This document shows positions 1,949-47,723 of a DNA stretch of 62,157 nt, piece after piece. The DNA is from a virus. Taxonomy: Duplodnaviria; Caudoviricetes. Where the stretch lies: the IMG/VR virus record IMGVR_UViG_3300027833_000049, positions 1 through 62,157 of that record; one strand, given 5' to 3'. The notes below the pieces were generated by a model that saw only the letters and a program-made list of their open reading frames with translations, had not been told where the DNA came from and made no database searches. Both the position numbers and the translations under genes were made by a program. How positions within the stretch are numbered: position 1 is the stretch's first letter; the number at the start of each line of letters is the position of its first letter.

Positions 1949-3211
1949 ATGTATCTTTCAGAGCAAATTGAGAGCAAGTGGGCACCAGTCCTCGAGCATG
2001 CTGACCTGCAGCCTATTGCAGATCCGTACAAGAAAGCTGTTACCGCTGTAGTTCTCGAAAATCAAGAAAAAGCCCTTTTTGAAGAAAAAGGCATCATGGA
2101 AGCAACTCACGTTAACCAAACAGGTGCCGGCGTAGATAACTACGATCCAATCCTAATTAGCCTCGTCCGTCGTGCGCTTCCCAATCTAATGGCATATGAT
2201 GTTGCTGGCGTTCAGCCGATGACTGGACCTACTGGTCTTATCTTCGCCATGAAGTCACACTACACTAATATGACAGGCACTGAAGCTTTGTTCAACGAAG
2301 CTGATACTGATTTCTCAGGTGGCGGTACTCATGCTGGTTCAAACCCAGTTGATGGTACTTACACTACTGGTGCTGGCGTTGCTACTGCAACTGCTGAAGG
2401 CTTCGGTGACGGAACTACTTTGAACGAGATGGCTTTCTCAATTGAGAAGACTACTGTTACAGCTAAGTCTCGTGCATTGAAAGCTGAGTACACTGTAGAA
2501 CTCGCACAAGATCTCAAAGCAATTCATGGTCTTGACGCTGAGTCAGAGCTTTCTAACATTCTTTCACAAGAAATTCTTGCTGAAATTAACCGTGAAGTTA
2601 TTCGTACAATCTACAAAGTCGCTAAGACTGGTTCTGCATCTACTGCAACACCTGGTACTTTCGATCTTGACGTTGACTCAAACGGTCGTTGGTCAGTTGA
2701 GCGTTTCAAAGGCTTGTTGTTCAACATCGAGCGTGACGCTAACGTAATTGCACAAGATACTCGTAGAGGGAAAGGTAACTTCATTATCTGCTCTTCAGAC
2801 GTAGCATCAGCGCTTGCAATGTCAGGTGTACTTGATTACGCTCCTGCACTACAAACTAACCTCAGCGTTGACGATACTGGCAACACTTTCGCAGGTGTTC
2901 TTAACGGTCGTTACAAAGTTTATATCGATCCATACAGTGCTAACACTGGTTCAGCATCACAGTTCTACGTTGCTGGATACAAAGGTACTAGCCCTTATGA
3001 CGCAGGCATCTTCTATTGCCCATACGTTCCTTTACAAATGGTTCGTGCGATTGACCCTGAAACCTTCCAGCCTAAGATCGGCTTCAAGACTCGTTACGGC
3101 ATGGTTGCTAACCCATACGTTACACAGACTGATGGTACTACTGACGGTGATACATTCACTGCTTCACGTAACCAGTACTACAGGAAAGTCAAAGTACAAA
3201 ACTTGATGTAA
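1949..3211 (+). CDS. gp23: Major capsid protein (gp23)
   Basis: Motifs GVQPMTGPTGLIFAM, SRALKAEYTVELAQDLKAIHGLDAE, YCPYVPLQM and FQPKIGFKTRYG. Confidence 0.99.
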   Translation: MYLSEQIESKWAPVLEHADLQPIADPYKKAVTAVVLENQEKALFEEKGIMEATHVNQTGAGVDNYDPILISLVRRALPNLMAYDVAGVQPMTGPTGLIFAMKSHYTNMTGTEALFNEADTDFSGGGTHAGSNPVDGTYTTGAGVATATAEGFGDGTTLNEMAFSIEKTTVTAKSRALKAEYTVELAQDLKAIHGLDAESELSNILSQEILAEINREVIRTIYKVAKTGSASTATPGTFDLDVDSNGRWSVERFKGLLFNIERDANVIAQDTRRGKGNFIICSSDVASALAMSGVLDYAPALQTNLSVDDTGNTFAGVLNGRYKVYIDPYSANTGSASQFYVAGYKGTSPYDAGIFYCPYVPLQMVRAIDPETFQPKIGFKTRYGMVANPYVTQTDGTTDGDTFTASRNQYYRKVKVQNLM

Positions 3212-3252
3212 GCATCAAAAATAAAAAGAATTGCTCAAAGCAATCTATTTTG

Positions 3253-3278
3253 AAAGGGCTCTTCGGAGTCCTTTTTTT
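3253..3278 (+). terminator. Rho-independent terminator after gp23
   Basis: AAGGGCTC-TTCG-GAGTCCTT stem with a UUCG loop, followed by a T run. Confidence 0.9.
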
Positions 3279-3333
3279 GGCCTAAAAACTGTGTAACAAT
3301 TTGTGTAAATCTATATTTAAGAATTTTTCGTAT

Positions 3334-3341
3334 TATAAATA
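3334..3341 (+). promoter_or_regulatory. T4-type late promoter for the monooxygenase/cytochrome operon
   Basis: TATAAATA after the gp23 terminator and 32 nt before the ATG at 3374. Confidence 0.8.
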
Positions 3342-3373
3342 GTAAACATAAACTAAACTAACGAAGGTGCATT

Positions 3374-4660
3374 ATGAAAAAAATATTATCAATGATTACA
3401 TTCTTTGCGATAGGATTTGTTGCCGGCGGCGTCAACGGACAAACCTATACAGCAGAAGTGGCAGATATCATTAATGAAAACTGTGTAGTGTGTCATCGTC
3501 AAGGCGGCATTGGACCAATGAGCTTTGAAACATACGAGCAAGTAAGACCTTGGGCGCCGCTGATTGCTATGAAAGTAGCAAGTAGAGAAATGCCTCCTTA
3601 CGCCTATGATCATGGAATTGGTATTCAAGACCTTCAAGGCGATTGGAGACTAGCTCAACAAGATATTGATAGTATAGTAGAATGGGTAAACAGCGGATCA
3701 AAGTATGGTAATCCTGATACATTGGTAGCTTCTCCAGATTTAGGTGATACTGAAGCTTGGAGTTTCGAAGGCGACTTCGGTGCACCAGATGCAATTATTC
3801 CTTCTGTAGCAATAGACATTCCTGCAAACGGTAACGATTTATGGCACAAGCATTTAGTTCCAACAGGACTTACTGAAGATCGTTGCATTAAAGCAGTACA
3901 AGTTAAGCCACGGGGCGAAGCTAAAGCAGTCGTACATCACGCCAACTCTAATGTGGTTATTGATGGAGGCCGTGAAGGCATGCTGACCGAGTATGCTATG
4001 GGAAAATGGGGAGAGATTGTTCCAGAAGGAGTATGCAGAATTCTTCCAGGGAACGCAGAAATTAGATGGGATATTCACATGTTCCCCGGCGGACTTGGTG
4101 CGATGGCACCAGGATCAGTCATTAAAGACAACGTGGTAGAGATCGGCCTTTGGTTATACTCTGACGAAGAGAGCAAGGCACTTAAATACAAGCAAGATTT
4201 GTCGCTTTATCGCTTAGGGAATCAGGACGATCTAGTAGTTCCTCCTCATGGTTATGCAATGACTCAAGGCTTTCACAGTTTTGATCATCCAGTAAGACTA
4301 GATAGTTTTCAGCCACATGGTCACTTGCGTATGAATGCAGCAAGCCTTGAAATCTTCTACCCAGAGACTGGTCGTACTGAGCAAGTCAGTCAGATAAGCA
4401 AGTGGAGTGCAACATGGCACCACAGTCATCTATATTCGCCTGAAGCCGCTCCTTTGATTCCAGCAGGTGCAGTTATTATTCTCAAGCAATGGTATGACAA
4501 TACAGCAGAGAATCCAAATAACCCAGATCCTGATATGTATGTAATGGGCGGTTCAAGAACTGGTGATGAAATGACGCACAGCTGGTTAGCCATCACTCAT
4601 TTAGATGACGAAGGATTTTCTGAACTCAAAGCAAAACGAATGATAGCAGGCAATGACTAA
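3374..4660 (+). CDS. Exported heme c-containing copper type II (PHM/DBH-like) monooxygenase, copy 1
   Basis: N-terminal signal peptide; CVVCH heme motif with a candidate distal Met in EMPP; VVHHAN...DIH (CuH-like site); PHGHL...DEM (CuM-like site); YDNTAENPNNP motif. Confidence 0.8.
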   Translation: MKKILSMITFFAIGFVAGGVNGQTYTAEVADIINENCVVCHRQGGIGPMSFETYEQVRPWAPLIAMKVASREMPPYAYDHGIGIQDLQGDWRLAQQDIDSIVEWVNSGSKYGNPDTLVASPDLGDTEAWSFEGDFGAPDAIIPSVAIDIPANGNDLWHKHLVPTGLTEDRCIKAVQVKPRGEAKAVVHHANSNVVIDGGREGMLTEYAMGKWGEIVPEGVCRILPGNAEIRWDIHMFPGGLGAMAPGSVIKDNVVEIGLWLYSDEESKALKYKQDLSLYRLGNQDDLVVPPHGYAMTQGFHSFDHPVRLDSFQPHGHLRMNAASLEIFYPETGRTEQVSQISKWSATWHHSHLYSPEAAPLIPAGAVIILKQWYDNTAENPNNPDPDMYVMGGSRTGDEMTHSWLAITHLDDEGFSELKAKRMIAGND

Positions 4661-4826
4661 AATACAATTAATATTAGCAAGTATTATTATAGCAAGTTGT
4701 ACTAGTTCTGGCTACAATGGATCGCATGAGGTCGATTGGATGCCAGATCGAGTAGTTTGGGAACAAAATATTATAGACTGTAGAAGAGCAACTGTTTGTA
4801 GAGCAGAAGATCTTTTTAAGCAGTGA
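4653..4826 (+). CDS. Small predicted lipoprotein (57 aa, not in the ORF track)
   Basis: MTKIQLILASIIIASC lipobox-like signal; overlaps the stop of the upstream gene; two further Cys (DCRRATVC). Confidence 0.65.
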   Translation: MTKIQLILASIIIASCTSSGYNGSHEVDWMPDRVVWEQNIIDCRRATVCRAEDLFKQ

Positions 4827-4852
4827 TAAACCAATTAGGATGATAGTAGAAG

Positions 4853-5176
4853 ATGATTAAATTTATTAAAATATTAGCAGTATCAACATTTTGTATTGTT
4901 TGGACTAGCATAGCAGTTCATGCAGATGAGTTTGATTCAGTAAAAATGAAATGGAGAACCTGTGCAGCCTGTCACGGCAATGAAGCACAAGGCAAGCCAG
5001 GATTTCCTAGTCTTAACTGGATGGAAGAAGATTACATCGTAGAAGCATTGACTGACTACAAACAAATGATTACCCGTGGTGACATGAGTGGTATTATGTT
5101 TGGTCAAGCAGCAACGCTATCAGATGAGGAAGTTGTACAGATGGCAAAATATATTAAGGAACTAAAAAATGACTAG
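4853..5176 (+). CDS. Monoheme class I cytochrome c (c553/c4-like)
   Basis: Signal peptide ending AVHA; CAACHG; PSL motif; distal Met in IMFGQAATLSDEEV. Confidence 0.9.
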   Translation: MIKFIKILAVSTFCIVWTSIAVHADEFDSVKMKWRTCAACHGNEAQGKPGFPSLNWMEEDYIVEALTDYKQMITRGDMSGIMFGQAATLSDEEVVQMAKYIKELKND

Positions 5177-6407
5177 ACTAAATACAGCAGTAAGTACATT
5201 TGCAATCCTAGTTTTTATGCTAGGAGCAAAAGCAGAAGCAGCAGAGATTGATTATGCAGAAAATGTAGCACCTATCTTTGTAGAGCAGTGTCAGAGCTGT
5301 CACAGAGAAGGCGGCATTGCTCCTTGGGCAATGACTGACTACAGAATGCTTCAAGCATTCGCACCTGCAATCAAAGAAGCAGTTACATCATTAAGAATGC
5401 CACCAGGACAGATTGATCGTAAGTATGCAAAGGATATCATAAATCATCGTACACTAAATGATTTAGAAATGGAAACTATTGTAGAGTGGGTCAATGCAGG
5501 AGCACCTGTAGAAGGTGACAGAGATCCACTAACAGAAACTGTTTACTCTACATCAGAGTGGGTACACGGCGAGCCTGATATGATCATTGAAGTACCTCCT
5601 ATGGAGATTCCTGCAGGTCCTTCAGCAATTCCTTATCGTTATGTCAGTGTACCCACTGGTTTAACAGAAGACAAGTGGTTGCGTGGATCGGAGTATTTGC
5701 CTTCAGAGCCTACTGTGATGCATCACATGCTAAACTCAGTCGTACTTCCTGGTAAAGGCAGTATGAATATTCTAGGCGCACAAGGTGGCGGACAAGCTGA
5801 GATGAACTTTGCGAGTGTCTCTGCTTATGTTCCAGGTGGTGATCCAGATTTTTATGACGAGAATACTGGCGGATTACTTCGTGCAGGTTCAATTGTAAAT
5901 CTACAGTTACACTACACACCAGACGGCACTGCTAGAACAGACAACGCACGAATTGGGTTGTACTTCCATGACGAAGGCGTAGTACCAGAAGAAAGAATGG
6001 CAGGCGATTGTGCTTGTATATTCCCGCAAACTTGGACACCGATTCCGCCGTACGATCCTAACTTTGTACAGACAGCAGAAGTAGTATTAAAGAACGATGT
6101 TAACTTGCACACATTCTTACCACACATGCATTTCCGTGGTAAGAGTATGAAAGCAACTGCATTCTACCCAGACGGCAGCAGTGAAGAGTTGATTGATGTT
6201 CCTGTGTACGACTATGCTTGGCAGCTTTCATATACATGGAAAGAGCCTAAGCCCTTACCCAAAGGAACTCGTTTGTTTGTAGAAGGCGCATTCGATAACT
6301 CAGTAGACAACAAGATGAACCCTGATCCAAGCGCCACTGTGATGTGGGGGCAAATGTCTGAGCAGGAAATGTTCTTCGGAGCGTTCACTTGGAAGAATGC
6401 AGAATAA
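5169..6407 (+). CDS. Exported heme c-containing copper type II monooxygenase, copy 2
   Basis: Signal peptide (AEA); CQSCH and RMPP; VMHHML...QLHY; PHMHFRG...QEM; FDNSVDNKMNP motif. Confidence 0.8.
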   Translation: MTRLNTAVSTFAILVFMLGAKAEAAEIDYAENVAPIFVEQCQSCHREGGIAPWAMTDYRMLQAFAPAIKEAVTSLRMPPGQIDRKYAKDIINHRTLNDLEMETIVEWVNAGAPVEGDRDPLTETVYSTSEWVHGEPDMIIEVPPMEIPAGPSAIPYRYVSVPTGLTEDKWLRGSEYLPSEPTVMHHMLNSVVLPGKGSMNILGAQGGGQAEMNFASVSAYVPGGDPDFYDENTGGLLRAGSIVNLQLHYTPDGTARTDNARIGLYFHDEGVVPEERMAGDCACIFPQTWTPIPPYDPNFVQTAEVVLKNDVNLHTFLPHMHFRGKSMKATAFYPDGSSEELIDVPVYDYAWQLSYTWKEPKPLPKGTRLFVEGAFDNSVDNKMNPDPSATVMWGQMSEQEMFFGAFTWKNAE

Positions 6408-6415
6408 GTTATTTT

Positions 6416-6423
6416 TATAAATA
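6416..6423 (+). promoter_or_regulatory. T4-type late promoter
   Basis: TATAAATA before the GIY-YIG gene. Confidence 0.75.
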
Positions 6424-6431
6424 GTAGAAAC

Positions 6432-6465
6432 GAGATAGAGAGAGGCTGTAACTTCTCTCTATCTC
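6432..6465 (+). other. 14-bp stem-loop in the leader of the homing endonuclease
   Basis: GAGATAGAGAGAGG-CTGTAA-CTTCTCTCTATCTC, with one G-U pair. Confidence 0.7.
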
Positions 6466-6495
6466 TAAACAAGTGAAACTAATAAGGAGAATCAC

Positions 6496-7119
6496 ATGTC
6501 TACTACTACTTATAACATTGTATATAAGACTACCAACCTTGTCAATAACAAAATATATATTGGCGTCCATTCTACCAATGATCTTGATGACGGCTACTTC
6601 GGATCTGGTACTGCATTAAAATACTCTATAGAAAAACATGGTATAGATAATTTCTCTCGTGAAATATTATATTTCTTTGCCACAGCAGACGAAGCCTACG
6701 CTAAAGAAAAACAGCTAGTCACTGAATCTTTTGTTTCTCGGCAAGATAATTATAATATGAAGCCAGGAGGTTATGGCGGATTCAATTCCCCTACAAAAGA
6801 ACAACGAAGAGCAATTTCAATTCGGGTGTCCGGCGAAAATAATCCAATGTATGGCCAAGGCGAGAAACTTCTTGGTGAAAAGAATGGGATGTTCGGAGCA
6901 GATAGACCTGACGAATGGTGTAAACAGCACTCATCATTTATGAAAGGCAATAAAAATGCCGTGGGAGCAAACTGGTCAGAAGAAGCTAGAAAGAAAAAAT
7001 CTGAGCAGATGAAAAAAGTTGTAAAGAAACGAGCTGCCTGCATCAAGTGTCACAAAGAAATCACAATACAAAATTTAGGTAGGCACTACGCAACTCATAA
7101 TAATTTGACAATAGAGTAA
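6496..7119 (+). mobile_element. Free-standing GIY-YIG homing endonuclease (Seg-like)
   Basis: IVYKTTNLVNNKIYIGVH, YFGSG and YNMKPGG motifs; NUMOD3-like repeats GENNPMYG/GEKNGMFG; C-terminal CxxC...H. Confidence 0.9.
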
Positions 7120-7248
7120 CATAAAGTAACAACATAATGTCACTTATCTACTCATTTTAGGTTCTAGAAGTTATATATAGTAATGAGTGTTTTATCAAGG
7201 CGCTCATTTACTTTAACTTTATTTTGCTCACAAGGCAAGGAATTAAAA

Positions 7249-7353
7249 ATGATTATCGGCGCAAAGACAGCCAAACTAGAAACAGTTGTTACTTTTATGT
7301 TAGCGTTAGTAGTAACCTCACCTGTAGTACTCGCAGCAATCGCAGTAATTTAA
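7249..7353 (+). CDS. Small hydrophobic protein (34 aa, not in the ORF track)
   Basis: AAGGA SD; MIIGAKTAKLETVVTFMLALVVTSPVVLAAIAVI with one TM-like segment. Confidence 0.5.
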   Translation: MIIGAKTAKLETVVTFMLALVVTSPVVLAAIAVI

Positions 7354-7357
7354 GCGT

Positions 7358-7365
7358 TATAAATA
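7358..7365 (+). promoter_or_regulatory. T4-type late promoter
   Basis: TATAAATA before the gp3-like gene. Confidence 0.8.
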
Positions 7366-7392
7366 GTAATATAGAAAGACAAGGATATTACT

Positions 7393-7974
7393 ATGGTAAA
7401 CGTTTTAGCAAATGTAACAGAATCAACATGGGACGCTAGTAACCCTGGTGAATTAGACTATCTAAAGCCTAATGGTTTTAAGTTTAAGATTCACAATTTA
7501 CCTAGTGTCTCATTCTTTTGTCAGTCTGCAAACATTCCAGATGTTTCAATGGGATCTCCCCAAGTTGCTACACCTCTTGTTGATTATTATCAGCCAGGAG
7601 ATAAGCTTGCCTATGGTGAGCTAAATATTCGTTTTCTTATTCAAGAAAATATGAACAACTATAATGAAATATATGAATGGCTAGTCGGACTAGGCTTCCC
7701 AGAAAGTCATAAACAATATACTGATTTTTCTAATAGTCAGTCATATCGCTTCCCTACCATAAACCCATCAAAGCAAAGATCGCTCGGCAACTTTAGCGAT
7801 GCATCTTTGTTTATTCTTGATTCAAATAATAATACAATAAAAACAATAGTGTTTCAAGATGCGTTTCCGGTTTCTCTTAGTGGTCTTGAGTTTGAGATAA
7901 GTTCCGGTAGCACTGAATATTTTCAAGGAGTTGCTGCGTTTAGATACAGACAGTACAAGATTACAACGCCATAA
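7393..7974 (+). CDS. gp3: Tail completion / tube terminator protein (gp3-like)
   Basis: LKPNGFKF, FFCQSANIP, PGDKLAYGEL and FPVSLSGLEF motifs (tail-tube fold); synteny before uvsY. Confidence 0.8.
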   Translation: MVNVLANVTESTWDASNPGELDYLKPNGFKFKIHNLPSVSFFCQSANIPDVSMGSPQVATPLVDYYQPGDKLAYGELNIRFLIQENMNNYNEIYEWLVGLGFPESHKQYTDFSNSQSYRFPTINPSKQRSLGNFSDASLFILDSNNNTIKTIVFQDAFPVSLSGLEFEISSGSTEYFQGVAAFRYRQYKITTP

Positions 7975-8001: not shown

Positions 8002-8445
8002 ATGATTACATTGAACGAACTACAAGACACATGGAAAACAGACTGCAAAATAGACGAACTCAACCTTGGCAGTGAGTCTATAAAAACCGCAGAGCTTCAC
8101 TCTAAGTATCTCAACCATCTAACTAACTTTAAGCTACAGCTAAGAAAGTTTGAATCTCAAATGCTTACTCTTCGTAGAGTGAAGTGGAGATACTTTCGTG
8201 GCGAATTATCCAAACTAGAACTAGACGATTTAGGTTGGGAGCAGTACTTAGGTCCACAGCCTTTGAAAAATGAAATGCAAGAATACCTAGACAGCGACTC
8301 TGAAATTATCAAAATAAATGATAAGCTAGATTATGTAAGAGCTTGTTTGTACCAATGTGAGTCTATTATGAAGTCACTAAATAGTAGAACATGGGATATA
8401 AAAAATGCTGTGGAATTTATGAAGTTTACCAACGGAAGTTTTTAG
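8002..8445 (+). CDS. uvsY: Recombination mediator UvsY
   Basis: LHSKYL, WRYFRGE and SRTWDIKNAVEFMKF motifs; precedes uvsW. Confidence 0.88.
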   Translation: MITLNELQDTWKTDCKIDELNLGSESIKTAELHSKYLNHLTNFKLQLRKFESQMLTLRRVKWRYFRGELSKLELDDLGWEQYLGPQPLKNEMQEYLDSDSEIIKINDKLDYVRACLYQCESIMKSLNSRTWDIKNAVEFMKFTNGSF

Positions 8446-9929
8446 TGATTAGAGTAATAAAAAAAGACGAAGCATATTTACGAGTAGAAACAGACCCTAG
8501 TACATCTCAAGAAATCTGTGATTTTTTTACATTTGAAGTTCCTGGTGCTAAGTTTATGCCTAGCTATCGGGCTAGAGTGTGGGACGGAAAAGCTAGATTG
8601 TTTAACATGTATCGCCAAGAACTATATGTAGGCTTGTTGCCATATTTACAAGAGTTTGCAGATACATTAGAATATACGGTTGAAGTTGATATTGCTAAAA
8701 TAGGTGACCCGGTATCGTCACAGTATGTTGAAGCGTTTGCTAAAAAACTAAATCTACAAAGCGCAGGCAAAGATATTGAAATACGAGATTACCAAGTAGA
8801 AGCTGTTAAGCATTCTATCAACAAAGGCAGAGCGTTACTTCTATCACCTACTGCTTCAGGCAAATCTCTCATCATATACAATCTTGTTAGATATCACCAA
8901 CATCTTGGAAGAGAGCAGCTCCTCATCGTACCTACTACCTCTCTAGTTGAACAGATGTACGGAGATTTTAAAGACTACTCAACTGCAAATGATTGGGACG
9001 TGGCTGAAAACTGCCATAGAATATATGGCGGCAAAGATAAAACAATAGAACTGCCAGTAACTATTTCTACTTGGCAATCTATTTACAAATATCCTAAATC
9101 TTGGTTTGATAGATTTGATGTTGTCTACGGTGATGAAGCTCACAACTTTAAAGCTAAGTCTCTTACTTCCATATTAGATAAATGTACTGATGCAGCTTAT
9201 CGTATTGGAACAACAGGCACACTTGATGGCGCCAAAACCCACAAGCTAGTGTTAGAAGGTATCTTTGGTTCAGTCAAAAAAGTTATTACTACTAAGAAGT
9301 TAATGGATGATAATGCAGTTGCCAGCCTTGATATAACTTGTTTAGTATTAGAATATTCTGATGTTGAGCGTAAGCTAGTTAAAGGTATGACGTATCAAGA
9401 AGAAATGGATTGGATTGTAAGTCATCCTGTTAGAAATACTTTTCTAAAAAACTTATGTACTACACAAACAGGTAACACCTTAGTATTGTTTCAATATGTT
9501 GAGAAGCATGGGAGAGTGTTATATGACCTTATAAATAATAAGGTAGGCGATACTAGAAGTGTGTTTTTTGTGTATGGTGGAACTGCTACTGAACAACGTG
9601 AAGAAATACGAGCGTTAACAGAAACAAAAGATGATGCAATTATAGTTGCCTCATACGGAACTTTCTCTACTGGTATTAACATTAGGAATCTTCACAATAT
9701 AGTATTTGCGAGTCCTAGTAAATCTAGAATAAGAAATCTACAATCCATTGGTAGAGGACTTAGAAAAGGTGATAACAAAACAAGTTGCAATCTCTTTGAT
9801 GTAGGTGATGATATATCCTGGAAGTCAAAGAAAAACTATACACTCGGTCATATGGTTGAACGAGTAAAAATATATAATGAAGAAGGGTTTAAATATAAAC
9901 TCGTTAAGGTACCCATTAATGTCTCATAA
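8445..9929 (+). CDS. uvsW: SF2 DNA helicase UvsW (probable GTG start at 8445)
   Basis: RDYQ, SPTASGKS, DEAH, GTTGT and LQSIGRGLR motifs. Confidence 0.95.
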   Translation: MIRVIKKDEAYLRVETDPSTSQEICDFFTFEVPGAKFMPSYRARVWDGKARLFNMYRQELYVGLLPYLQEFADTLEYTVEVDIAKIGDPVSSQYVEAFAKKLNLQSAGKDIEIRDYQVEAVKHSINKGRALLLSPTASGKSLIIYNLVRYHQHLGREQLLIVPTTSLVEQMYGDFKDYSTANDWDVAENCHRIYGGKDKTIELPVTISTWQSIYKYPKSWFDRFDVVYGDEAHNFKAKSLTSILDKCTDAAYRIGTTGTLDGAKTHKLVLEGIFGSVKKVITTKKLMDDNAVASLDITCLVLEYSDVERKLVKGMTYQEEMDWIVSHPVRNTFLKNLCTTQTGNTLVLFQYVEKHGRVLYDLINNKVGDTRSVFFVYGGTATEQREEIRALTETKDDAIIVASYGTFSTGINIRNLHNIVFASPSKSRIRNLQSIGRGLRKGDNKTSCNLFDVGDDISWKSKKNYTLGHMVERVKIYNEEGFKYKLVKVPINVS

Positions 9930-11109: not shown

Positions 11110-11997
11110 ATGAAAGTACGTTACTCCGAGATATTTTATAGTTTTCAAGGCGAAGCTGAACTTGCCGGAACACCGACAACTTGGCTTCGATTCTTCGGCT
11201 GTAATTTAGAATGTAATGGATTTGGTCAAGACAACCCTGCCGATACAACGACACACGAACTTCCGTATAAAGACTTTGACACTAGCAATATAATTGCCGT
11301 TGAACAATTGCCAGTGTGGGAATTCGGATGTGATTCCTCATACTCTTGGTCTATGAAGTACAAACACTTAGCTCAAGATGCTACCCCCGAAGTTGCTGCT
11401 GATAAGCTAGAAGCATTGCTTCCTCATGGAAAGTTTACTCATCCTGAGACTGGTCAAGAAAACATGCTTGCTTTTACAGGCGGCGAGCCAATGTTACAAC
11501 AAAAGCAAATGAAAGCTATTGTAAATGAGTTCTTAATCAGAGGCAACCCTCCGAAGATTATCACTGTTGAAACTAATGGCACTAAAAAACTCAGTGCAGA
11601 CTTAAAAAACTTTATCAATGATTATCTATCTGAGATGGGCATTCGTTGGCATTGGGCTATTAGTCCCAAAATACTACACACTTCAGGTGAAACTGGTGCG
11701 GTTGATGTAGACATGTTTATGTCGTACATTGACGGCGTGTACGGTACCGGGTGTCTCAAGTTTGTATGCAATGGTTCTGATGCTTCATGGGCAGAAATAG
11801 AACGATATGTCAAAGAAGTTATTGTTTATTGCAACGGAGCAGAGATAACTGTTCCTGATATATGGATCATGCCCGTAGGGGCAACAAAAGAAGAACAGGA
11901 AACTGTTGCTGACATTGTAAACGAATCTATGAGACGAGGATATAAAGTAGCAACTCGTAATCACGCATATGTGTATGGCAATCAGATAGGAACTTAA
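11110..11997 (+). CDS. queE: 7-carboxy-7-deazaguanine synthase QueE (radical SAM)
   Basis: EIFYSFQGE; RFFGCNLEC...CDS (Cys motif with an insertion); FTGGEPML, VETNG and ISPK motifs. Confidence 0.9.
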   Translation: MKVRYSEIFYSFQGEAELAGTPTTWLRFFGCNLECNGFGQDNPADTTTHELPYKDFDTSNIIAVEQLPVWEFGCDSSYSWSMKYKHLAQDATPEVAADKLEALLPHGKFTHPETGQENMLAFTGGEPMLQQKQMKAIVNEFLIRGNPPKIITVETNGTKKLSADLKNFINDYLSEMGIRWHWAISPKILHTSGETGAVDVDMFMSYIDGVYGTGCLKFVCNGSDASWAEIERYVKEVIVYCNGAEITVPDIWIMPVGATKEEQETVADIVNESMRRGYKVATRNHAYVYGNQIGT

Positions 11998-11999
11998 TT

Positions 12000-12422
12000 A
12001 TGCAGTTTAAAGATGACAAACTATTTGTAGATTGGACTGACATTGATGCCTTCTGTTTAGAGATGGCACACGAAGGAAGTCGGTTGGGCATTGATAAAGT
12101 TGTCGGTGTTTCTCGTGGCGGGCTAATACCTGGTGTTATTATTTCACATTTGATGGGAGTGCCTTTTGATTCAATCACTTGGCAAACTCGTGACGGCGAT
12201 AATCGAGATACTAAAAAAGTTCTAAATTTTAATAATCCTAAATATATGATAGTAGATGACATGGTTGACAGTGGCAAGACTATGATAGACTTGATGTGTC
12301 TTGCTCCTGACGCAGTTAAAGCGGTTATCTTTAATAAAAAAGAAGATGTATTACTTGACATTGTAGGTCAAGAGTTATATAATGTAAGCGAATGGGTAGT
12401 CTTTCCTTGGGAAAATAATTAA
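12000..12422 (+). CDS. Type I phosphoribosyltransferase (Gpt-like)
   Basis: GVSRGGLIP, PRPP loop IVDDMVDSGKT, and WVVFPWE. Confidence 0.9.
   Translation: MQFKDDKLFVDWTDIDAFCLEMAHEGSRLGIDKVVGVSRGGLIPGVIISHLMGVPFDSITWQTRDGDNRDTKKVLNFNNPKYMIVDDMVDSGKTMIDLMCLAPDAVKAVIFNKKEDVLLDIVGQELYNVSEWVVFPWENN
12355..12383 (+). promoter_or_regulatory. Internal consensus sigma70 promoter within the PRTase CDS
   Basis: Exact TTGACA-17-TATAAT. Confidence 0.7.
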
Positions 12423-12431
12423 CAGGATAAT

Positions 12432-12626
12432 ATGATGAGAACTAGCACTGTAAGACAAATTCCGTATGTTGGTTCTGGATCTTCAGGCCCAGATACGATT
12501 TATGTGGTAGACTTCTATGAAAATAGCATTAAGGTTGAAACCAGAGAATTCGTGAACAAAAGTGTACATTATGCAGAATCTGCTGCAAGAAATTGGGACG
12601 CAGGGATAATTAAAAATGATAAGTAA
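12432..12626 (+). CDS. Hypothetical protein
   Basis: 64-aa ORF with an AGGA SD; KSVHYAESAARNW motif. Confidence 0.6.
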   Translation: MMRTSTVRQIPYVGSGSSGPDTIYVVDFYENSIKVETREFVNKSVHYAESAARNWDAGIIKNDK

Positions 12627-13290
12627 ACAGATTAAAACTAGATTACAACGAGCAGGTAAGCGTTTTCATGCCGCAGATAATATTTCTGAGTTTATGCATG
12701 AGGGAGACCATGAAGAATTAATTGAAGAGCTTACTGACAAATTTCAAGGTGTGTTAGAGAGCCTAGTTATAGATGTTGATAACGATCCGAATAGCATAGA
12801 CACTAGCCGAAGGTTAGCTAAAATGTATATAAACGAGATAATGTCTGGTCGTTATAACGATATGCCTAAAGTAACTTCATTTCCTAATGAAGGCCAATAT
12901 GATCAGTTGATAATAGTTCGGTCAGATATCAAGTCAATGTGTTCACATCATCATCAGCCAGTTACTGGTATCTGTTACATAGCTTGTTTGCCCGGAGATA
13001 ACGTTATTGGTCTTTCTAAGTACACTAGGATAGCACAACATTTAGCTCAACGAGGACAGCTTCAGGAAGAGTTGACTGAAATGATTGCAACCGAAATAGA
13101 GATGCTTACACAGGCTCCGGCTGTTGGTGTTTATATTCGTGCCCGTCACGGTTGTTGTGAGAATAGAGGAATTCGTTCTTCAAATAGTTCAACACAAACT
13201 ACTGTACTGAAGGGTGCTTTGAAAACAGACGCTGCGTTACGAAATGAATTTATGCACAATATTCAAATTCAGGAACATCTATGCGGATAA
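12616..13290 (+). CDS. folE: GTP cyclohydrolase I FolE
   Basis: SMCSHHHQP, IGLSKYTR, QLQEELT and HGCCENRG motifs. Confidence 0.95.
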   Translation: MISKQIKTRLQRAGKRFHAADNISEFMHEGDHEELIEELTDKFQGVLESLVIDVDNDPNSIDTSRRLAKMYINEIMSGRYNDMPKVTSFPNEGQYDQLIIVRSDIKSMCSHHHQPVTGICYIACLPGDNVIGLSKYTRIAQHLAQRGQLQEELTEMIATEIEMLTQAPAVGVYIRARHGCCENRGIRSSNSSTQTTVLKGALKTDAALRNEFMHNIQIQEHLCG

Positions 13291-17568: not shown

Positions 17569-18505
17569 AAATGTATTAGTAACTGGCGGCAATGGTTATA
17601 TAGGTCACCAAACTGTTATTCAATTAAAAGAAAATGGCTTCAATCCAATTGTAGTTGATTGGGTAGCAGATGCTGCAAAGACTTCTTATACATATTCATT
17701 CGATGACAATCATGTCCTAGAAATAATGAAAGTACATGAAGTTGAAACCGTTATACATTTTGCGGCTGACCACGAAGTTGGTAGGAGTGTAGAAGAGCCT
17801 TCTGTATTCTACAACAATAATATACTTGCAAGTGTTAAACTCTTAGATAGATGTATACAAGCAGGAGTTAAAAACTTTATTTTTAGTAGCTCTAGTAGTG
17901 TATACGGAGACAACGTAGACTTCCCAACTACTGAAGCAACTATTAAAAATCCTATGTCTCCTTACGGTAGAACTAAGGATATGTTTGAGGAAATACTCAA
18001 AGATTATGAGGCAGCGTATGGCATTAACACACTAGCGTTAAGATATTTCAATGCAGCAGGTGCAGACGTATTAAATAGACATGGGTATGTACAAGAACCA
18101 CAGTCACATCTTTTCCCTATACTTGCTAGATGTTTTGGACGAGAGTTACCTTTTACTGTGTTCGGTAACGACTATGACACTCCTGATGGAACTTGCATTC
18201 GAGACTACACGCATGTATCAGACATCGCCAACGCACACATCTCAGCTATAGACTATTTGAACAGAGAAGGAACTCATAAAGTATTTAATATAGGCAAAGG
18301 CAGTGGCGAGAGCGTTTTAGATGTTATAAATGCTTTCAGTGAATATACAGGAAAAGAAATTCAAGTGAATTACGGTGATAGAAGAGCAGGTGATCCACCT
18401 AAAACTTTTGCTGACATCACTCTGGCTATAAATGAATTGATGTGGGTTCCTAAATATACTCTATCTGATATTGTAGAGCATGCATATAAGTGGGAGAATA
18501 AATAA
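17561..18505 (+). CDS. galE: UDP-glucose 4-epimerase
   Basis: VTGGNGYIG, SSSSSVYG, PYGRTK (YxxxK), LRYFNAAG and DGTCIRDYTHV motifs. Confidence 0.93.
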   Translation: MNKNVLVTGGNGYIGHQTVIQLKENGFNPIVVDWVADAAKTSYTYSFDDNHVLEIMKVHEVETVIHFAADHEVGRSVEEPSVFYNNNILASVKLLDRCIQAGVKNFIFSSSSSVYGDNVDFPTTEATIKNPMSPYGRTKDMFEEILKDYEAAYGINTLALRYFNAAGADVLNRHGYVQEPQSHLFPILARCFGRELPFTVFGNDYDTPDGTCIRDYTHVSDIANAHISAIDYLNREGTHKVFNIGKGSGESVLDVINAFSEYTGKEIQVNYGDRRAGDPPKTFADITLAINELMWVPKYTLSDIVEHAYKWENK

Positions 18506-18948
18506 TGTATTATAGTACTAAGCATTACGATCATAGCATAGGGTTATCAGCCGTATTTCGTCAACCTAACGCAGATCATTCGCATTGCAATTTGTTGCAC
18601 GGGTACAGTCTAGCATTCACGTTTACGTTTGGTTGTAAAGACTTAGACAATAAAAACTGGGCAGTAGATTTCGGCGGGCTGAAGCCATTAAAATCTTGGC
18701 TTGAAGATAACTTTGACCATAAGTTAGTAGTTGACCGAGCTGATCCTCATCTAGCAGATTTATTAGAATTGCAAAAGAAAGGATTGGCTGAGATCAGAGT
18801 AATGACTGGTGTTGGTGCCGAGAAGTTTGCAGAACACTCATTCAACTTTGCGGATAGATTAGTTCGTGAAATGACTGATGATCGCTGCTTCTGTGTAAAA
18901 TCTGAAGTCGCTGAACATGGTTCTAATTCAGCAATCTATGAGGCTTAA
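18505..18948 (+). CDS. queD: 6-carboxytetrahydropterin synthase QueD
   Basis: HCNLLHGY, VDFGGLK and FDH motifs. Confidence 0.88.
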   Translation: MYYSTKHYDHSIGLSAVFRQPNADHSHCNLLHGYSLAFTFTFGCKDLDNKNWAVDFGGLKPLKSWLEDNFDHKLVVDRADPHLADLLELQKKGLAEIRVMTGVGAEKFAEHSFNFADRLVREMTDDRCFCVKSEVAEHGSNSAIYEA

Positions 18949-42955: not shown

Positions 42956-43590
42956 TGGCTGACAAGCATATGGTATTCTCATTCGGCAGGATGTCTCCTC
43001 CGACGGCAGGACACAGTAAAGTTGTGGATCATGTTACTAATACTGCCTCTAAACTAGGTGCGGATCATCGGGTTATTGTAAGTCATTCACAAGACAAGAA
43101 TAAGAACCCGCTACACCCACAGCATAAAGTAGATTATTTGAAGCATGTTCACCCGACTGCAAACGTTGAATCCTCTTCTAAAGAGCATCCTCATTTTATG
43201 GCACATCTAGCTAAGATGCACAAGGAGGGCTACTCCCATGTTACAATGGTAGCAGGATCTGATAGAGTAGGAGAGTTTCAAAAATTAGCTGATAAATACA
43301 ATGGTCCGAACGGCAGTTATAACTTTAAACATTTGAAAGTAGTATCAGCAGGACATAGAGATCCTGATGCAGAAGGTACTGCTGGAATCAGTGGTACTAA
43401 GATGCGTTCACACGCTGGTAATAACGATTATAAATCATTTAAGTCAGGGTTGCATCCTAATGCATCTGACGAACATGCGAAGAAATTATTTACTGCAACT
43501 CGCACTGGTATGGGTTTACATAAAGAACAAACAAGATTATCTTTTGGAGCATTTTTGAATGAACATAGAAGAAGTATACACTCAACTTAA
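42955..43590 (+). CDS. HIGH-family nucleotidyltransferase (cytidyltransferase/NMNAT-like)
   Basis: FGRMSPPTAGH, VAGSDR and ISGTKMR motifs. Confidence 0.85.
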   Translation: MADKHMVFSFGRMSPPTAGHSKVVDHVTNTASKLGADHRVIVSHSQDKNKNPLHPQHKVDYLKHVHPTANVESSSKEHPHFMAHLAKMHKEGYSHVTMVAGSDRVGEFQKLADKYNGPNGSYNFKHLKVVSAGHRDPDAEGTAGISGTKMRSHAGNNDYKSFKSGLHPNASDEHAKKLFTATRTGMGLHKEQTRLSFGAFLNEHRRSIHST

Positions 43591-44017
43591 AATTGACGAA
43601 GGTGTTAGATATAAAATTTATGCAGACCATTTAGGTCTAGCCACTTTCGGCATTGGGCATCTAGTAATAGCAAGTGACCCTGAATATGGTCAACCTTTGG
43701 GTACAGAGGTATCCGAAGATAGAGTGCGTGAATGTTTTGAGAGAGATTTAGACACATCTATATCAGAGTGCGGTGTACTATACGGCAAAGAAGAATTTGG
43801 TGCATTTCCAGAAGAAGTACAGCAAGTCCTAGTTAACATGATGTTTAACATGGGGCGTCCTCGTCTTACTCAATTTAAGAAATTCAATGCTCATATTCTT
43901 GCTCGAAACTGGTTAAGAGCCGCACATGAAGGCAGAGACTCTAAGTGGCATAGGCAAGTTAATAATAGAGCAGAAAGATTAATGATGAGATTAGATGTAT
44001 TGAAGGGAGTAGAATAA
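43559..44017 (+). CDS. T4-type lysozyme (endolysin)
   Basis: DEG...YADHLGLATFGIGHL catalytic E/D/T region; NMMFNMG and SKWHRQVNNRA motifs. Confidence 0.92.
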   Translation: MNIEEVYTQLKIDEGVRYKIYADHLGLATFGIGHLVIASDPEYGQPLGTEVSEDRVRECFERDLDTSISECGVLYGKEEFGAFPEEVQQVLVNMMFNMGRPRLTQFKKFNAHILARNWLRAAHEGRDSKWHRQVNNRAERLMMRLDVLKGVE

Positions 44018-44733
44018 TGTTATCAACTGAGTTTTATGCACATGCTTGTATTGCAGAGCTTGCATACAAAGACATAGATAAAGATGTCAGAAAAGAATTT
44101 AAAGCCCTAGGATTTACTTCGATAAAGTTTATAGATATTGATGGCGCTCAAGCATATGTTCTAAGCAACAAAGAAAGAATCACTGTCGCATTTCGTGGAA
44201 CTGAAGCGACTGAAAAAAGTGATATATACGCAGACTTAGAAATCACGCACGAAAAAGGATTTCACGAAGGATTCTACGAAGAGTACGAGAAACTAGAATT
44301 AGCAGTGCATGGTGAAGTTTCTAAACTCAGAGGACGAAAGAAGCGTCCAGTATATGTAACTGGTCATAGTTTAGGAGCAGCTATTGCTTCTATTTTCTGC
44401 TTTAATTATCACGAAGCAGTAGCATTATATACATTTGGTTGTCCTAGAAACGCATCTTGGTCAAAGTCTAAAGAACTTAAAGTACCACATTATAGATGTG
44501 TAAACAACAATGATATAGTACCTAAGATGCCACCTGCTATCTTGAACTATAGACATCACGGTGAATTGCATTACATCAATTTTTATGGTAATGTCCGTGT
44601 ATTGACTTGGTGGCAAAGGTTTAAAGATTCTTGGCGTGGCCGAAGGGCGGCGTGGAGAAATAAAGATAAGTTTGACGGTATCAGTGATCACGGTATGACT
44701 GAATATTGCAGATGTTTAGAAGACAATAAATAA
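44017..44733 (+). CDS. Class 3 lipase (alpha/beta hydrolase)
   Basis: VAFRGTE, HEGF, TGHSLGAA, YTFGCPR, NDIVP and DH motifs. Confidence 0.9.
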   Translation: MLSTEFYAHACIAELAYKDIDKDVRKEFKALGFTSIKFIDIDGAQAYVLSNKERITVAFRGTEATEKSDIYADLEITHEKGFHEGFYEEYEKLELAVHGEVSKLRGRKKRPVYVTGHSLGAAIASIFCFNYHEAVALYTFGCPRNASWSKSKELKVPHYRCVNNNDIVPKMPPAILNYRHHGELHYINFYGNVRVLTWWQRFKDSWRGRRAAWRNKDKFDGISDHGMTEYCRCLEDNK

Positions 44734-44750
44734 AAAAAGGAGATTGCTAA

Positions 44751-45032
44751 ATGTGGTTCTTGTTACTTAAAGCAGCTTTTACTGGTATATTTGGATCAGC
44801 ATTTGGCAAATGGTTTTTAACAACTCGTATGGGCAGATGGTTTCAAGATAAACTTAATGCCTATATGCAATACTTAGCAGTTAAATATGATATAAAAGTA
44901 GCTAAAAGAGAAGCTAAGTGGAAATCAGAATATCCTGGATTGGTAAAACGATTAGATGATATGGAAAAGGAAATAAAAACAATAAAAAAAGCCTCATCGG
45001 GAGTAAAGAGAGTCCCTAGGAAGAAAGCATGA
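44751..45032 (+). CDS. Small membrane-anchored protein (holin/antiholin candidate)
   Basis: Hydrophobic N-terminus and basic tail; lies within the lysis block. Confidence 0.5.
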   Translation: MWFLLLKAAFTGIFGSAFGKWFLTTRMGRWFQDKLNAYMQYLAVKYDIKVAKREAKWKSEYPGLVKRLDDMEKEIKTIKKASSGVKRVPRKKA

Positions 45033-45720: not shown

Positions 45721-46069
45721 TACGACCGCCTGTTCTCTATTTCCTTCACGCAAACCTGAAGAAGTTGTAATAACTCAGGTAGAATATGTAGAAAGGACTA
45801 TTCCTACACAACCTCGTCCTAAGCCTGTATCTCTATATGACATAGAGTTTTATGCTGTCACAGAAGAAAACCTAGATGAGTTTTTGGACAGATTTGAAAA
45901 AGAAAACGGCGACATAGTATTCTTTGCTATCAGTGTTCCTGATTACGAAAACATATCACTAAATATGGGTGAGTTAAGACGATTTATAGAACAACAAAAA
46001 TCTATCATTCTATACTACGAAGAGAATGTGAAACCGAGAGAAGCGGAAGGGACTGATGAAAACATTTAA
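45671..46069 (+). CDS. Outer-membrane spanin lipoprotein (Rz1-like)
   Basis: MKWKTLRVSLLLLLLSSTTAC lipobox; Pro-rich segment; overlaps the 3' end of the i-spanin. Confidence 0.7.
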   Translation: MKWKTLRVSLLLLLLSSTTACSLFPSRKPEEVVITQVEYVERTIPTQPRPKPVSLYDIEFYAVTEENLDEFLDRFEKENGDIVFFAISVPDYENISLNMGELRRFIEQQKSIILYYEENVKPREAEGTDENI

Positions 46070-47723
46070 GACCTATCTACTAGACGAAGACTTGCGAAAG
46101 TGGTTCGGCAAAGGAAAAGAAGGCGATTGGGTTCGTGTAGGGACTGACGGTGAAATTAAAGGCGATTGTGCTAGAGAAGAAGGCGAAGGTAAGCCCAAGT
46201 GTATGCCTAGAAGCCGAGCGCATGGCATGGACAAAGATGATAGAGCAAAGTCTGCTCGAAGAAAGCGCAGAGAAGATCCTGTAGCAGATAGAAAAGGCAA
46301 AGGCGGCAAGCCTGTTATGGTAGCGACAGAAGAAACTATCACCGAAAAAAATGTCCCCACTAAACCTGCTTTATGGTCTAAGTACAAGTCACAAGCAAAG
46401 GCTAAGTTTGATGTGTATCCTTCCGCATATGCTAATGGTTGGGCATCAAAGATGTACAAGAAAGCAGGCGGTGGTTGGAAGTCTGTGTCTGAGGGTGTAC
46501 AAGCAGGCGTTGCTGAAGCGTGTTGGTCTGGATACAAACAGAAAGGCATGAAGAAGAAAGGTAATAAGGTTGTTCCTAACTGTGTACCAGAAGAAATGGT
46601 TAGCGAAATGCCTATGAGCGGTCCTACTGGCTCTATGTTTGCTATGAAGAAAGAAGGCAAAGAGCATTCTTGGAAGTCAGAAGGTCATTACACTAAAGAC
46701 GGCAAAGAGTGGACAGGGCCTCAACACGCACACGATGGCCAAGTAATGACAGGTGAGAAGCACACCGCTGATAGTCAAGACTTGTATCACTACAAAGCAC
46801 TTCCTGCTGATGTTAGGAAGAAAGTCGCAAAGACGATTGAAGAGAAGCTTCTTGCTAGAAAGAATAGCATCGGCGACTATATTAAAGATTTCAAGAAATC
46901 TGACGCCCCCCAGTTCAAAGGACGTGGTGAATCAAAGCGTAAACAGATGGCAGTGGCAGCTTACTTAAAGTCCAAGAGAAGAGACGGCGAGAGAGCATTG
47001 GGCGAAGATATCAAATACGACTCAAACATGGGTGCTATGGATTGGGGAACACCCGAAGGCACTGAGTACATGAAAGATGTTACTCCTGGCGAAAAGAAAA
47101 AGAAGTCAAAAGCAATCAAAGAGTCAGGTGCTGCACACGAAACTAAAGCAGAATACAGAAAAGATAATGCTGAAGATGCACCTGAGTTAGGAGATTATGC
47201 TTTTAGTAAACAAGATATTAAAGAGCTAGAATATGAAGCAGATAATTTGTCATATGAAGATGCACTTAGTTTAGGTGTGTTTGATGACGAAATAGATGAC
47301 ACGGAAGTAAATATTACTGAGGTGTTATCAGTACAAGGTCGTCTCAAAAGACGATTCGCAGCAAGAAAGAATAGACAGAAACTTAAAGTAGCCCGTGGCA
47401 TAGCTTTAAGGCGTGGTTCATCACCTGATCGGTTGAAGAAAAGAGCAACTCGTGGTGCAAGGGGTATGGTATATAAACGTCTCCTAAAAGGCAGAGATAA
47501 GTCAGCTCTCCCACCAGCAGAGAAAGGCCGTTTAGAGAAATTGATAGGAATGTATGCACCTCTAGTGTCTAGGCTGGCAGTTAGAATGTTGCCAGGTATG
47601 CGTAAGATGGAAATAAATCGCATGAAGAGCAGGAAAGCAGGAACTAAGTCTTCTAAGAAGTATAAAGCAGCAAGACCTACAGCTAAGAAGCAAACATCGA
47701 AGAAATTCAAAATTAAGAAATAA
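46056..47723 (+). CDS. Modular basic protein, internal head polyprotein candidate
   Basis: MKTFKTYLLDE N-terminus; Lys/Arg-rich modules separated by Glu linkers. Confidence 0.65.
   Translation: MKTFKTYLLDEDLRKWFGKGKEGDWVRVGTDGEIKGDCAREEGEGKPKCMPRSRAHGMDKDDRAKSARRKRREDPVADRKGKGGKPVMVATEETITEKNVPTKPALWSKYKSQAKAKFDVYPSAYANGWASKMYKKAGGGWKSVSEGVQAGVAEACWSGYKQKGMKKKGNKVVPNCVPEEMVSEMPMSGPTGSMFAMKKEGKEHSWKSEGHYTKDGKEWTGPQHAHDGQVMTGEKHTADSQDLYHYKALPADVRKKVAKTIEEKLLARKNSIGDYIKDFKKSDAPQFKGRGESKRKQMAVAAYLKSKRRDGERALGEDIKYDSNMGAMDWGTPEGTEYMKDVTPGEKKKKSKAIKESGAAHETKAEYRKDNAEDAPELGDYAFSKQDIKELEYEADNLSYEDALSLGVFDDEIDDTEVNITEVLSVQGRLKRRFAARKNRQKLKVARGIALRRGSSPDRLKKRATRGARGMVYKRLLKGRDKSALPPAEKGRLEKLIGMYAPLVSRLAVRMLPGMRKMEINRMKSRKAGTKSSKKYKAARPTAKKQTSKKFKIKK

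Follow-up and report, generated by a model that had tools for sequence, protein, structure and literature searches.

Four genes lie together on the + strand at positions 3374-6407 of the 62,157-nt stretch of DNA analysed here (IMG/VR record IMGVR_UViG_3300027833_000049, below called the window), which is part of the genome of an uncultured marine T4-like (Kyanoviridae-like) myophage. This cassette is found between the gene for the major capsid protein gp23 and that for gp3. Its first gene (3374-4660) encodes P1, a protein of 428 amino acids (aa), and its last (5169-6407) encodes P4 of 412 aa; between them are a small open reading frame (ORF) of 57 aa (4653-4826) and a gene for a 107-aa cytochrome c (4853-5176), all on the + strand. 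The stop of P1 overlaps the start of the small ORF at 4653-4660, and the cytochrome c and P4 genes overlap in the same way at 5169-5176. A T4-type late-promoter motif, TATAAATA, lies on the + strand at 3334-3341, 33 nt before the ATG of P1. A first-pass annotation, made by a model from the letters of this DNA, had described four ORFs with two overlaps behind a T4 late promoter of their own. The coordinates match, and the motif is kept in relatives with the same gene context.

The window contains 15 copies of the motif TATAAATA, every one of them on the coding strand, while 6.05 copies would be expected on both strands together and none of 100 shuffled sequences reached 15. Copies precede gp22, gp23, P1, a homing endonuclease gene and gp3. 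In all 14 loci listed where the cassette stands in the gp23 context the motif is found 37-40 nt upstream of P1 (66-70 nt in three of them), and it lies upstream of 17/58 viral P1 genes as against 0/138 cellular ones. A second copy (6416-6423, +) follows P4, just before a strong hairpin at 6432-6465 on the + strand (-22.6 kcal/mol, z -6.95, 0/200 shuffles as good), which marks the downstream edge of the cassette. At the other end, a hairpin with a U-run follows gp23 on the same strand at 3251-3278 (-13.4 kcal/mol, z -2.32, 4/200 shuffles as good) and is a probable terminator or attenuator marking the upstream edge. A consensus terminator scan of 3000-7500 listed nothing, and thus called neither hairpin. 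Two metatranscriptome runs contain no contig across the intergenic 3188-3331, although DNA runs cover it, and one RNA-library contig starts at 3363; this pattern hints weakly at transcription from the late promoter at 3334-3341.

A CxxCH motif is found in only four of the 119 + strand ORFs of at least 50 aa, namely P1, the cytochrome c, P4 and the C-terminus of a GIY-YIG protein. Eight of the same 119 have a strongly hydrophobic N-terminus, and all four cassette proteins are among them. Signal peptides had been assigned to the two paralogs at first sight, and since hydrophobic N-termini are visible in all four, the products are predicted to be exported.

P1 and P4 are paralogs, with 28% identity over their full length (E 9e-39). 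P1 consists of a hydrophobic leader, a cytochrome c-like helical domain with C37-x-x-C40-H41 and M73, and a core of two domains with the PHM/DBH fold. When it comes to the copper ligands, the alignment points to H188, H189 and H235 for a CuH-type site and to H315, H317 and M400 for a CuM-type site. P4 has the same layout: a leader, C41-x-x-C44-H45 and M77, followed by H185, H186 and H248 and by H319, H321 and M401. In a family alignment of 55 sequences, P4 among them, C37, C40, H41, M73, H188, H235, H315 and H317 are invariant, while H189 and M400 are nearly so. All six copper ligands (HH..H / HxH..M) are kept in 63/63 phage P1 copies and 29/29 phage P4 copies. The first-pass description of two diverged paralogs, each with a CxxCH motif and a full ligand set, thus holds.

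A profile built from the 55 sequences matches human DBH (4ZEL, 7e-11) and rat PHM (1.2e-8) among the PDB sequences, and the VHH, H, HxH and DEM segments of the family align with H107/H108, H172, H242/H244 and M314 of PHM. A published account gives H107/H108/H172 and H242/H244/M314 as the PHM copper ligands (PMC12164859). An AlphaFold2 model of P1 made from the alignment has a pLDDT of 88.3 and a pTM of 0.84; it is helical over residues 25-106 and forms two beta-sandwich domains from about residue 140 onward. When this model was compared with the PDB using Foldseek, ranks 1-31 were all PHM or DBH (E 1.1e-12 to 6e-9, probability 1.00), over alignments of about 300 columns and with TM scores on the target of 0.36-0.65, the DBH chains having the lowest. 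The DBH structure 4ZEL gave E-values of 3e-12 to 7e-12. The rank following this block is an unrelated protein at 1.6e-5. It is therefore well supported that P1 is a member of the PHM/DBH fold with a core of two beta-sandwiches. The PHM/DBH type, claimed at first for both paralogs, stands for P1 by family profile and predicted fold; for P4 it stands less firmly, since its own profile finds neither PHM nor DBH and its Pfam match is below threshold.

As for the heme domain of P1 (3464-3700 of the window, residues ~30-110), the closest relative by sequence with a solved structure is hydrazine synthase alpha (5C2V), whose C-terminal heme domain is matched at 2.7e-4 with the family profile and at 0.018 with the P4 profile.

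Both small proteins of the cassette turned out as first described. The 57-aa ORF has a lipobox, I-A-S-C16, whose Cys is invariant in 13/13 relatives, and two more invariant Cys, C43 and C49; by the lipobox consensus it is a predicted lipoprotein. It follows P1 in 16 of the 63 assessable viral loci, those with enough downstream sequence for the gene content to be read. Contigs from other runs also reveal a population variant that lacks it, in which 4618 is joined to 4837. The 107-aa protein has a leader followed by C37-A-A-C-H and is of the monoheme class-I type. It scores 35.5 bits against Pfam Cytochrom_C (cut-off 21.3, E 2.7e-8), is also above the cut-off for Pfam Cytochrome_CBB3, and has weak c550/c551/c553-like matches in NCBIfam, by which its sequence is confirmed as that of a monoheme cytochrome c. 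Only 84 homologs were found, on contigs of at most 103 kb, and the five nearest cellular genomes contain no close relative of it (at most 37% identity).

P1 is absent from the 50,697 records of deposited phage genomes, no PHROG covers any of the four cassette proteins, and a fold search of BFVD gave generic beta-sandwich matches only (TM on query at most 0.30). At least 266 contigs in IMG/VR match. A set of 158 loci was fetched, 80 viral and 78 cellular. The genes gp21, gp22 and gp23 lie directly upstream of P1 in 16 of the viral loci, and P4 is followed by gp3 in 7/7 loci that reach that far. In the cultured relatives HTVC008M and Melnitz no more than one small ORF separates gp23 from gp3, which indicates that the cassette is an insertion. 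A further 31 viral loci share at least two other proteins with the window but carry the cassette at a different position, which may be behind a trio of lysozyme, class-3 lipase and small gene, behind Hsp20, or close to QueD or ThyX. The window itself has a phage lysozyme, a class-3 lipase and a small ORF, in that order, at 43559-45032, and in nine other phage loci the cassette sits directly after this trio.

The gene content of the cassette also varies. In the 63 assessable loci the combination is P1 and P4 in 34, P1, cytochrome c and P4 in seven, and P1 with the lipoprotein in 16, while P1 is found alone in six. The P4 DNA of the window is 93% identical to P4 of phages in which the cassette lies beside the lysozyme and lipase genes, but only 75-76% identical to that of relatives with the same context, whose gp21-P1 region is 81-85% identical. 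The cassette is mosaic and appears to move between phage genomes by recombination.

The family is large, and it is abundant in the ocean. An exhaustive search at E<=1e-3 gave 9382 representative clusters, and close homologs number in the thousands in marine metagenomes. Trees were made with FastTree (277 sequences) and IQ-TREE (53 sequences). All viral P1, 28 in the tree, form one clade together with five cellular sequences, with an SH-aLRT support of 98 relative to other cellular copies; within it the viral sequences occupy one side of a branch with a weak support of 69. These five cellular sisters (L082-L086) are 79-80% identical and come from metagenome-assembled genomes (MAGs) of Gammaproteobacteria, Pseudohongiellaceae and Pseudomonadales. 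By sequence, then, the P1 family appears to be common to phages and Gammaproteobacteria of the Pseudohongiellaceae/OM182 type, and the phylogeny proposed in the first-pass annotation as a route to the donor groups P1 with such genes. Phage P4 forms a clade of its own. Its best cellular match is 51% identical and lies in the same genome as the best P1 match, and a P4 match is found in 27/301 genomes sampled from the order of that genome. Cellular P4-like proteins are encoded by frames of 570-640 aa and have an N-terminal extension of about 200 aa that is absent in the phage copies. In four of ten long bacterial relatives scanned there is an extra N-terminal AhpC/TSA redoxin domain, and such fusions fit an enzyme that is fed with redox equivalents.

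The cellular P1 genes are organised differently from those of the phages, in tandem arrays of two to six copies. In 59/78 cellular loci the array comes after a conserved gene for a secreted protein of some 310 aa, in which a D-Q-C-C-W motif is invariant (for instance L082:6819-7745). This protein has no match in Pfam, NCBIfam or the PDB profiles, and the cellular context yielded no substrate. Other genes near the arrays encode an MFS transporter (35/78), an AAA/HTH/TPR regulator (40/78) and a beta-lactamase-family hydrolase (24/78). None of these three, nor the 310-aa protein, is found in any viral locus. In addition, 21/78 cellular loci have a gene for an NHL-repeat beta-propeller in the vicinity of the arrays (found by two queries in 16 and 5 different loci). 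A divergent paralog is found on the opposite strand beside P1 arrays (for example L082:4677-6545, -). The His-x-His of CuM is lost in 35/184 cellular sequences, with R/K and N/S/G in its place, while the heme motif, the CuH ligands and the Met are kept; this paralog may be a non-catalytic or differently metallated relative.

The closest named cellular match to P1 (81%) lies on L081, a 335-kb contig (PBPT01000016.1) in a Neomarinimicrobiota bin. Besides P1 this locus has five further matches to T4-like genes, an ORF that resembles the lipoprotein gene, and TATAAATA 40 nt upstream of P1; its GC content is 35%. L087, from a Flavobacteriales MAG, likewise carries other phage genes, and both are probably phage or phage-containing contigs that have been misbinned into MAGs. 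Neomarinimicrobiota was accordingly rejected as a clue to the host, on the basis of the five phage-gene matches and the phage promoter motif.

Phage P1 and P4 are under purifying selection, with a ratio of nonsynonymous to synonymous substitutions (dN/dS) of about 0.1. Over the 52 usable pairs of 62 the median is 0.087 for P1, and over 28/28 pairs it is 0.121 for P4, both to be read with dS above 1 and near saturation; a dN/dS comparison had been suggested together with the phylogeny. Strong purifying selection combined with shuffling between phage genomes argues for a real pay-off in infecting marine heterotrophs. The cassette is a set of phage auxiliary metabolic genes (AMGs), being made up of cellular-type genes that lie in a bona fide phage genome and are kept by selection.

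Taken together, the probable though by no means certain reading is that of a late-expressed auxiliary cassette in which P1 and P4 are exported, heme c-fused two-copper monooxygenases of the PHM/DBH fold, from a family that is shared with Pseudohongiellaceae and that entered phages a single time. In each enzyme an N-terminal c-type heme domain would be fused to a PHM/DBH-fold core with two mononuclear copper sites, and both may function as periplasmic O2-dependent monooxygenases. The leaders would direct all four products across the inner membrane, where heme would be attached by the host Ccm machinery and copper would also be supplied by the host. CcmE is present in 5/5 of the nearest cellular genomes, while no cytochrome c maturation protein was found among the 41 window proteins scanned on the 62-kb contig, in line with the earlier observation that the window has no heme-maturation genes. 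The heme c domain would then replace ascorbate as the one-electron donor to CuH, and would itself receive electrons from the respiratory chain of the host, with or without the soluble 107-aa cytochrome c as an intermediate. At CuM, O2 would be activated and a C-H bond of the substrate hydroxylated. Export, electron path, oxygen chemistry and the loading of heme and copper are all inferred. The 57-aa lipoprotein, whose start overlaps the stop of P1, probably serves P1 as a partner or as an anchor in the membrane. Residues flanking CuM are conserved inside each phage clade but differ between P1 and P4, which suggests that the two probably have different substrates or catalyse successive steps. 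The P1 family would have entered phages once and later acquired phage base composition.

Several observations weigh against this reading. For copper monooxygenase and cytochrome c domains, P1 and P4 both stay below every gathering score of Pfam and NCBIfam. P1 has no match to Pfam Cu2_monooxygen or Cu2_monoox_C, P4 scores 13.7 bits against Cu2_monoox_C (cut-off 23, E 0.043), and the heme domains give sub-threshold Pfam cytochrome matches of 17.2 bits for P1 and 16.0 bits for P4 (cut-off 27). In NCBIfam there is no match for P1 or the 57-aa ORF and none that is meaningful for P4, and P1 and P4 used directly as sequence queries matched no PDB chain even at E<=10. A P4-centred profile of 13 sequences reached no PHM or DBH chain in the PDB; its sole match there, at 0.018, is a heme domain. 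The suggested link of P4 to PHM is consequently the weaker one, and consists of homology to P1, membership in the family alignment, the ligand positions and the sub-threshold Pfam match. Even for P1 the TM scores of 0.36-0.65 are moderate, with root mean square deviations of 4.3-7.0 A, and the clustering of the ligands into two sites, as well as the Cu-Cu and heme-to-CuH distances, are those implied by the PHM/DBH alignment.

Further objections concern the cassette as a whole. The RNA-library contigs fall short of proving that it is transcribed. All four genes occur together in 0/63 assessable viral relatives, and no fetched relative has both the lipoprotein and P4, which means that the four genes are no obligate unit and that the form seen in the window is composite. 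The first-pass annotation had presented them as one operon between gp23 and gp3; the gp23-P1 (16/80) and P4-gp3 (7/7) neighbourhoods recur in viral metagenomes, but the four-gene form does not. It had also given the phage an electron shuttle of its own. A cytochrome c gene is indeed encoded, but as it is found in only 7/63 relatives the shuttle is an accessory and not an integral part. The nearest cellular loci have a GC content of 46-58%, compared to 38% in the phage. Given that the genes have a phage-like GC content at third codon positions (GC3), this indicates that the acquisition is old and that the donor clade is probably not the present host. Finally, a monooxygenase uses up reducing power, and the benefit to the phage is unexplained.

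The phage might gain from oxidising a dissolved compound, a possibility suggested by the cellular neighbourhood, or from altering the envelope or exported peptides. More tentatively than the assignment of the enzymes, it may be proposed that marine T4-like phages install a periplasmic copper oxygenase of their own late in infection, fed by the respiratory chain through heme c and in some phages also through a soluble cytochrome c of their own making, which oxidises a compound or an envelope component that the host alone would not. It has to be considered in this connection whether the same chemistry is aimed at the envelope, receptors or exported peptides of the infected cell, leading to superinfection exclusion, help in lysis or maturation of periplasmic peptides, and not at an environmental nutrient. 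The late-promoter motif and the co-location with structural genes agree with such a target, as do the nine phage loci where the cassette comes directly after lysozyme, class-3 lipase and small gene, and the conserved small lipoprotein that accompanies P1. The cellular arrays beside an MFS transporter, a hydrolase and a regulator, however, look like substrate catabolism, and the cassette is also found beside Hsp20, QueD or ThyX, which are ordinary variable regions; an envelope target is judged unlikely.

Another explanation is that the proteins are not monooxygenases in vivo, but have a role in redox or copper handling on a PHM scaffold, for instance by taking up electrons, storing copper or detoxifying oxygen or reactive oxygen species, which could sustain the respiratory chain late in infection. 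The fused heme c and the separate cytochrome c point to electron flow, and relatives have redoxin fusions. Moreover, the persistence of the 35/184 cellular paralogs that lack HxH indicates that non-catalytic uses of the scaffold exist. What makes this explanation improbable is the retention of six ligands, including the CuM Met typical of O2-activating sites, in every one of the 63 P1 and 29 P4 phage copies, and the residues adjacent to CuM, which are conserved per clade and different between clades, as in substrate pockets.

It is more improbable still that the enzymes take part in the amidation of peptides or N-acyl-glycines as in animal PAM, where glycine is hydroxylated and a lyase step follows. 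Fold and ligands are those of PHM, and one of the NHL-repeat proteins encoded near 21/78 of the cellular arrays matches the PAL domain of PAM (3FVZ, 9.7e-13). The same protein matches the NHL domains of TRIM71 better (1.2e-21), so the match to PAL is a generic one, and since the NHL gene is found in no viral locus the phage has no PAL partner. In the published account of PHM, R240 is described as the ligand of the C-terminal carboxylate of the substrate (PMC12164859). The equivalent column, two residues before the first CuM His, is non-conserved in the family, with Gln in the P1 clade (Q313) and Leu in the P4 clade, which makes peptidyl-glycine unlikely as a substrate.

That the cassette is an assembly chimera in which bacterial DNA has been joined to a phage contig is hardly credible and was rejected: the closest named homologs do lie in bacterial MAGs, and the cassette has a GC content of 42.7% while the window mean is 38.4%, but the same gp23-P1 junction is found in 16 independent IMG/VR contigs, independent DNA contigs of other runs bridge it (X2 record 17, X3 record 25), a phage late-promoter motif is conserved in front of P1, gp3 follows P4 in seven loci, and the GC3 of P1 (0.33) and P4 (0.35) matches that of gp23 (0.37) and the polymerase (0.36). 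The first-pass annotation had itself named unsupported junctions as a danger to its proposal; contigs from two metatranscriptome studies also span P1 and the P1/lipoprotein and cytochrome c/P4 junctions, with 0-3 differences.

If P1 and P4 are indeed heme c-fused copper monooxygenases, they are best compared with PHM and DBH. In these enzymes a solvent cleft separates the two copper sites by about 11 A, and hydroxylation depends on O2 and a reductant. Both are textbook enzymes of animals and require ascorbate. The core of eukaryotic PHM (1PHM, 1OPM, 3MLL) shares the two beta-sandwiches and the in-register ligands and is the best structural match (E 1.1e-12). The sequence identity is nevertheless only 12-14%, the phage proteins have in addition a predicted c-type heme domain at the N-terminus and a leader for bacterial export, and Arg240 is not conserved in them. 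Human DBH (4ZEL) has the same ligand set and is the best match at the level of sequence profiles. It contains a DOMON domain and a dimerisation domain, but no heme, and acts on a phenethylamine, a substrate to which nothing at the phage cassette points.

A further comparison is with a bacterial family of Cu2_monoox-like proteins fused to cytochrome c, and often to a redoxin; both phage enzymes belong to it and share its invariant residues. The phage copies differ from it in that they lack the ~200-aa extension of the cellular P4-like proteins and the cellular neighbours, and have a phage late-promoter motif. Within the PHM/DBH superfamily the cassette falls in a bacterial branch that is large and uncharacterised. 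Host-type redox or oxygenase components carried by phages and expressed in infection are known from other systems, namely plastocyanin and PTOX of cyanophages and pmoC of large freshwater phages. Plastocyanin is a cupredoxin and pmoC is a membrane subunit of particulate methane monooxygenase, and all three represent protein families that are unrelated to P1 and P4. In the full-text literature no paper was found on the cassette, on heme-fused bacterial PHM-like enzymes or on their function, the supplementary tables of AMG catalogues, which might list the Pfam family, being outside that search. Together with the absence of the four proteins from deposited phage genomes, PHROGs and BFVD, this agrees with the early suggestion of an undescribed system, and the cassette is apparently a widespread, undescribed phage auxiliary module.

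Bacterial and phage enzymes of the PHM type with a c-type heme built in would represent a different way of feeding electrons to two uncoupled copper sites. If the proposed activity is true, the cassette constitutes a new functional class of AMG, and it gives the first experimental handle on a family of about 9,400 clusters of heme c-coupled PHM-type monooxygenases without need for ascorbate. The likely effects would be an oxygen-dependent transformation of dissolved organic matter, or of the envelope of the infected cell. With two enzymes, one cytochrome and one lipoprotein, the compact cassette is well suited for heterologous expression.

The genes around the cassette are those of a T4-like phage, as assigned by Pfam and PHROG. 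On one side are the gp21 prohead protease (33-692), the gp22 scaffold (747-1880) and gp23 (1949-3211; Pfam Gp23, 1.4e-141), and on the other a gp3/tail-tube-like tail completion protein (7393-7974), UvsY (8002-8445) and UvsW (8391-9929). Beyond UvsW the window encodes a family B DNA polymerase, UvsX, a gp41-like helicase, clamp loader and gp46/47-like proteins, ThyX, Hsp20, lysozyme and others. The gp23 protein shares 66-68% identity with its counterparts in Methylophilales phage Melnitz and in the Pelagibacter phages HTVC008M and Mosig. A scan of the window for tRNA genes that could indicate the host found none.

Between P4 and gp3 lies a gene for a Seg-like homing endonuclease of the GIY-YIG/NUMOD3 type (6496-7119, +; Pfam and PHROG phrog_314). 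No homolog of it is found in any of the 158 fetched loci, and in contigs of runs X3 and X16 position 6407 is joined to 7152, so that the gene is absent. It is a mobile gene, present or absent at the edge of the cassette and outside the enzyme system, and it may contribute to the mobility of the cassette.

Farther downstream there is a weak 4Fe-4S radical-SAM-like match at 11110-11997, followed by a GTP cyclohydrolase I gene at 12616-13290 and a 6-pyruvoyl-tetrahydropterin synthase/QueD-like gene at 18505-18948. The genes at 11110-13290 and 18505-18948 look like a 7-deazaguanine (preQ0-type) pathway. Far from gp23, a protein of 555 aa encoded at 46056-47723 has a weak match to the Gp23 family, just under the cut-off (3.5e-5), and is probably a gp24-like vertex protein.

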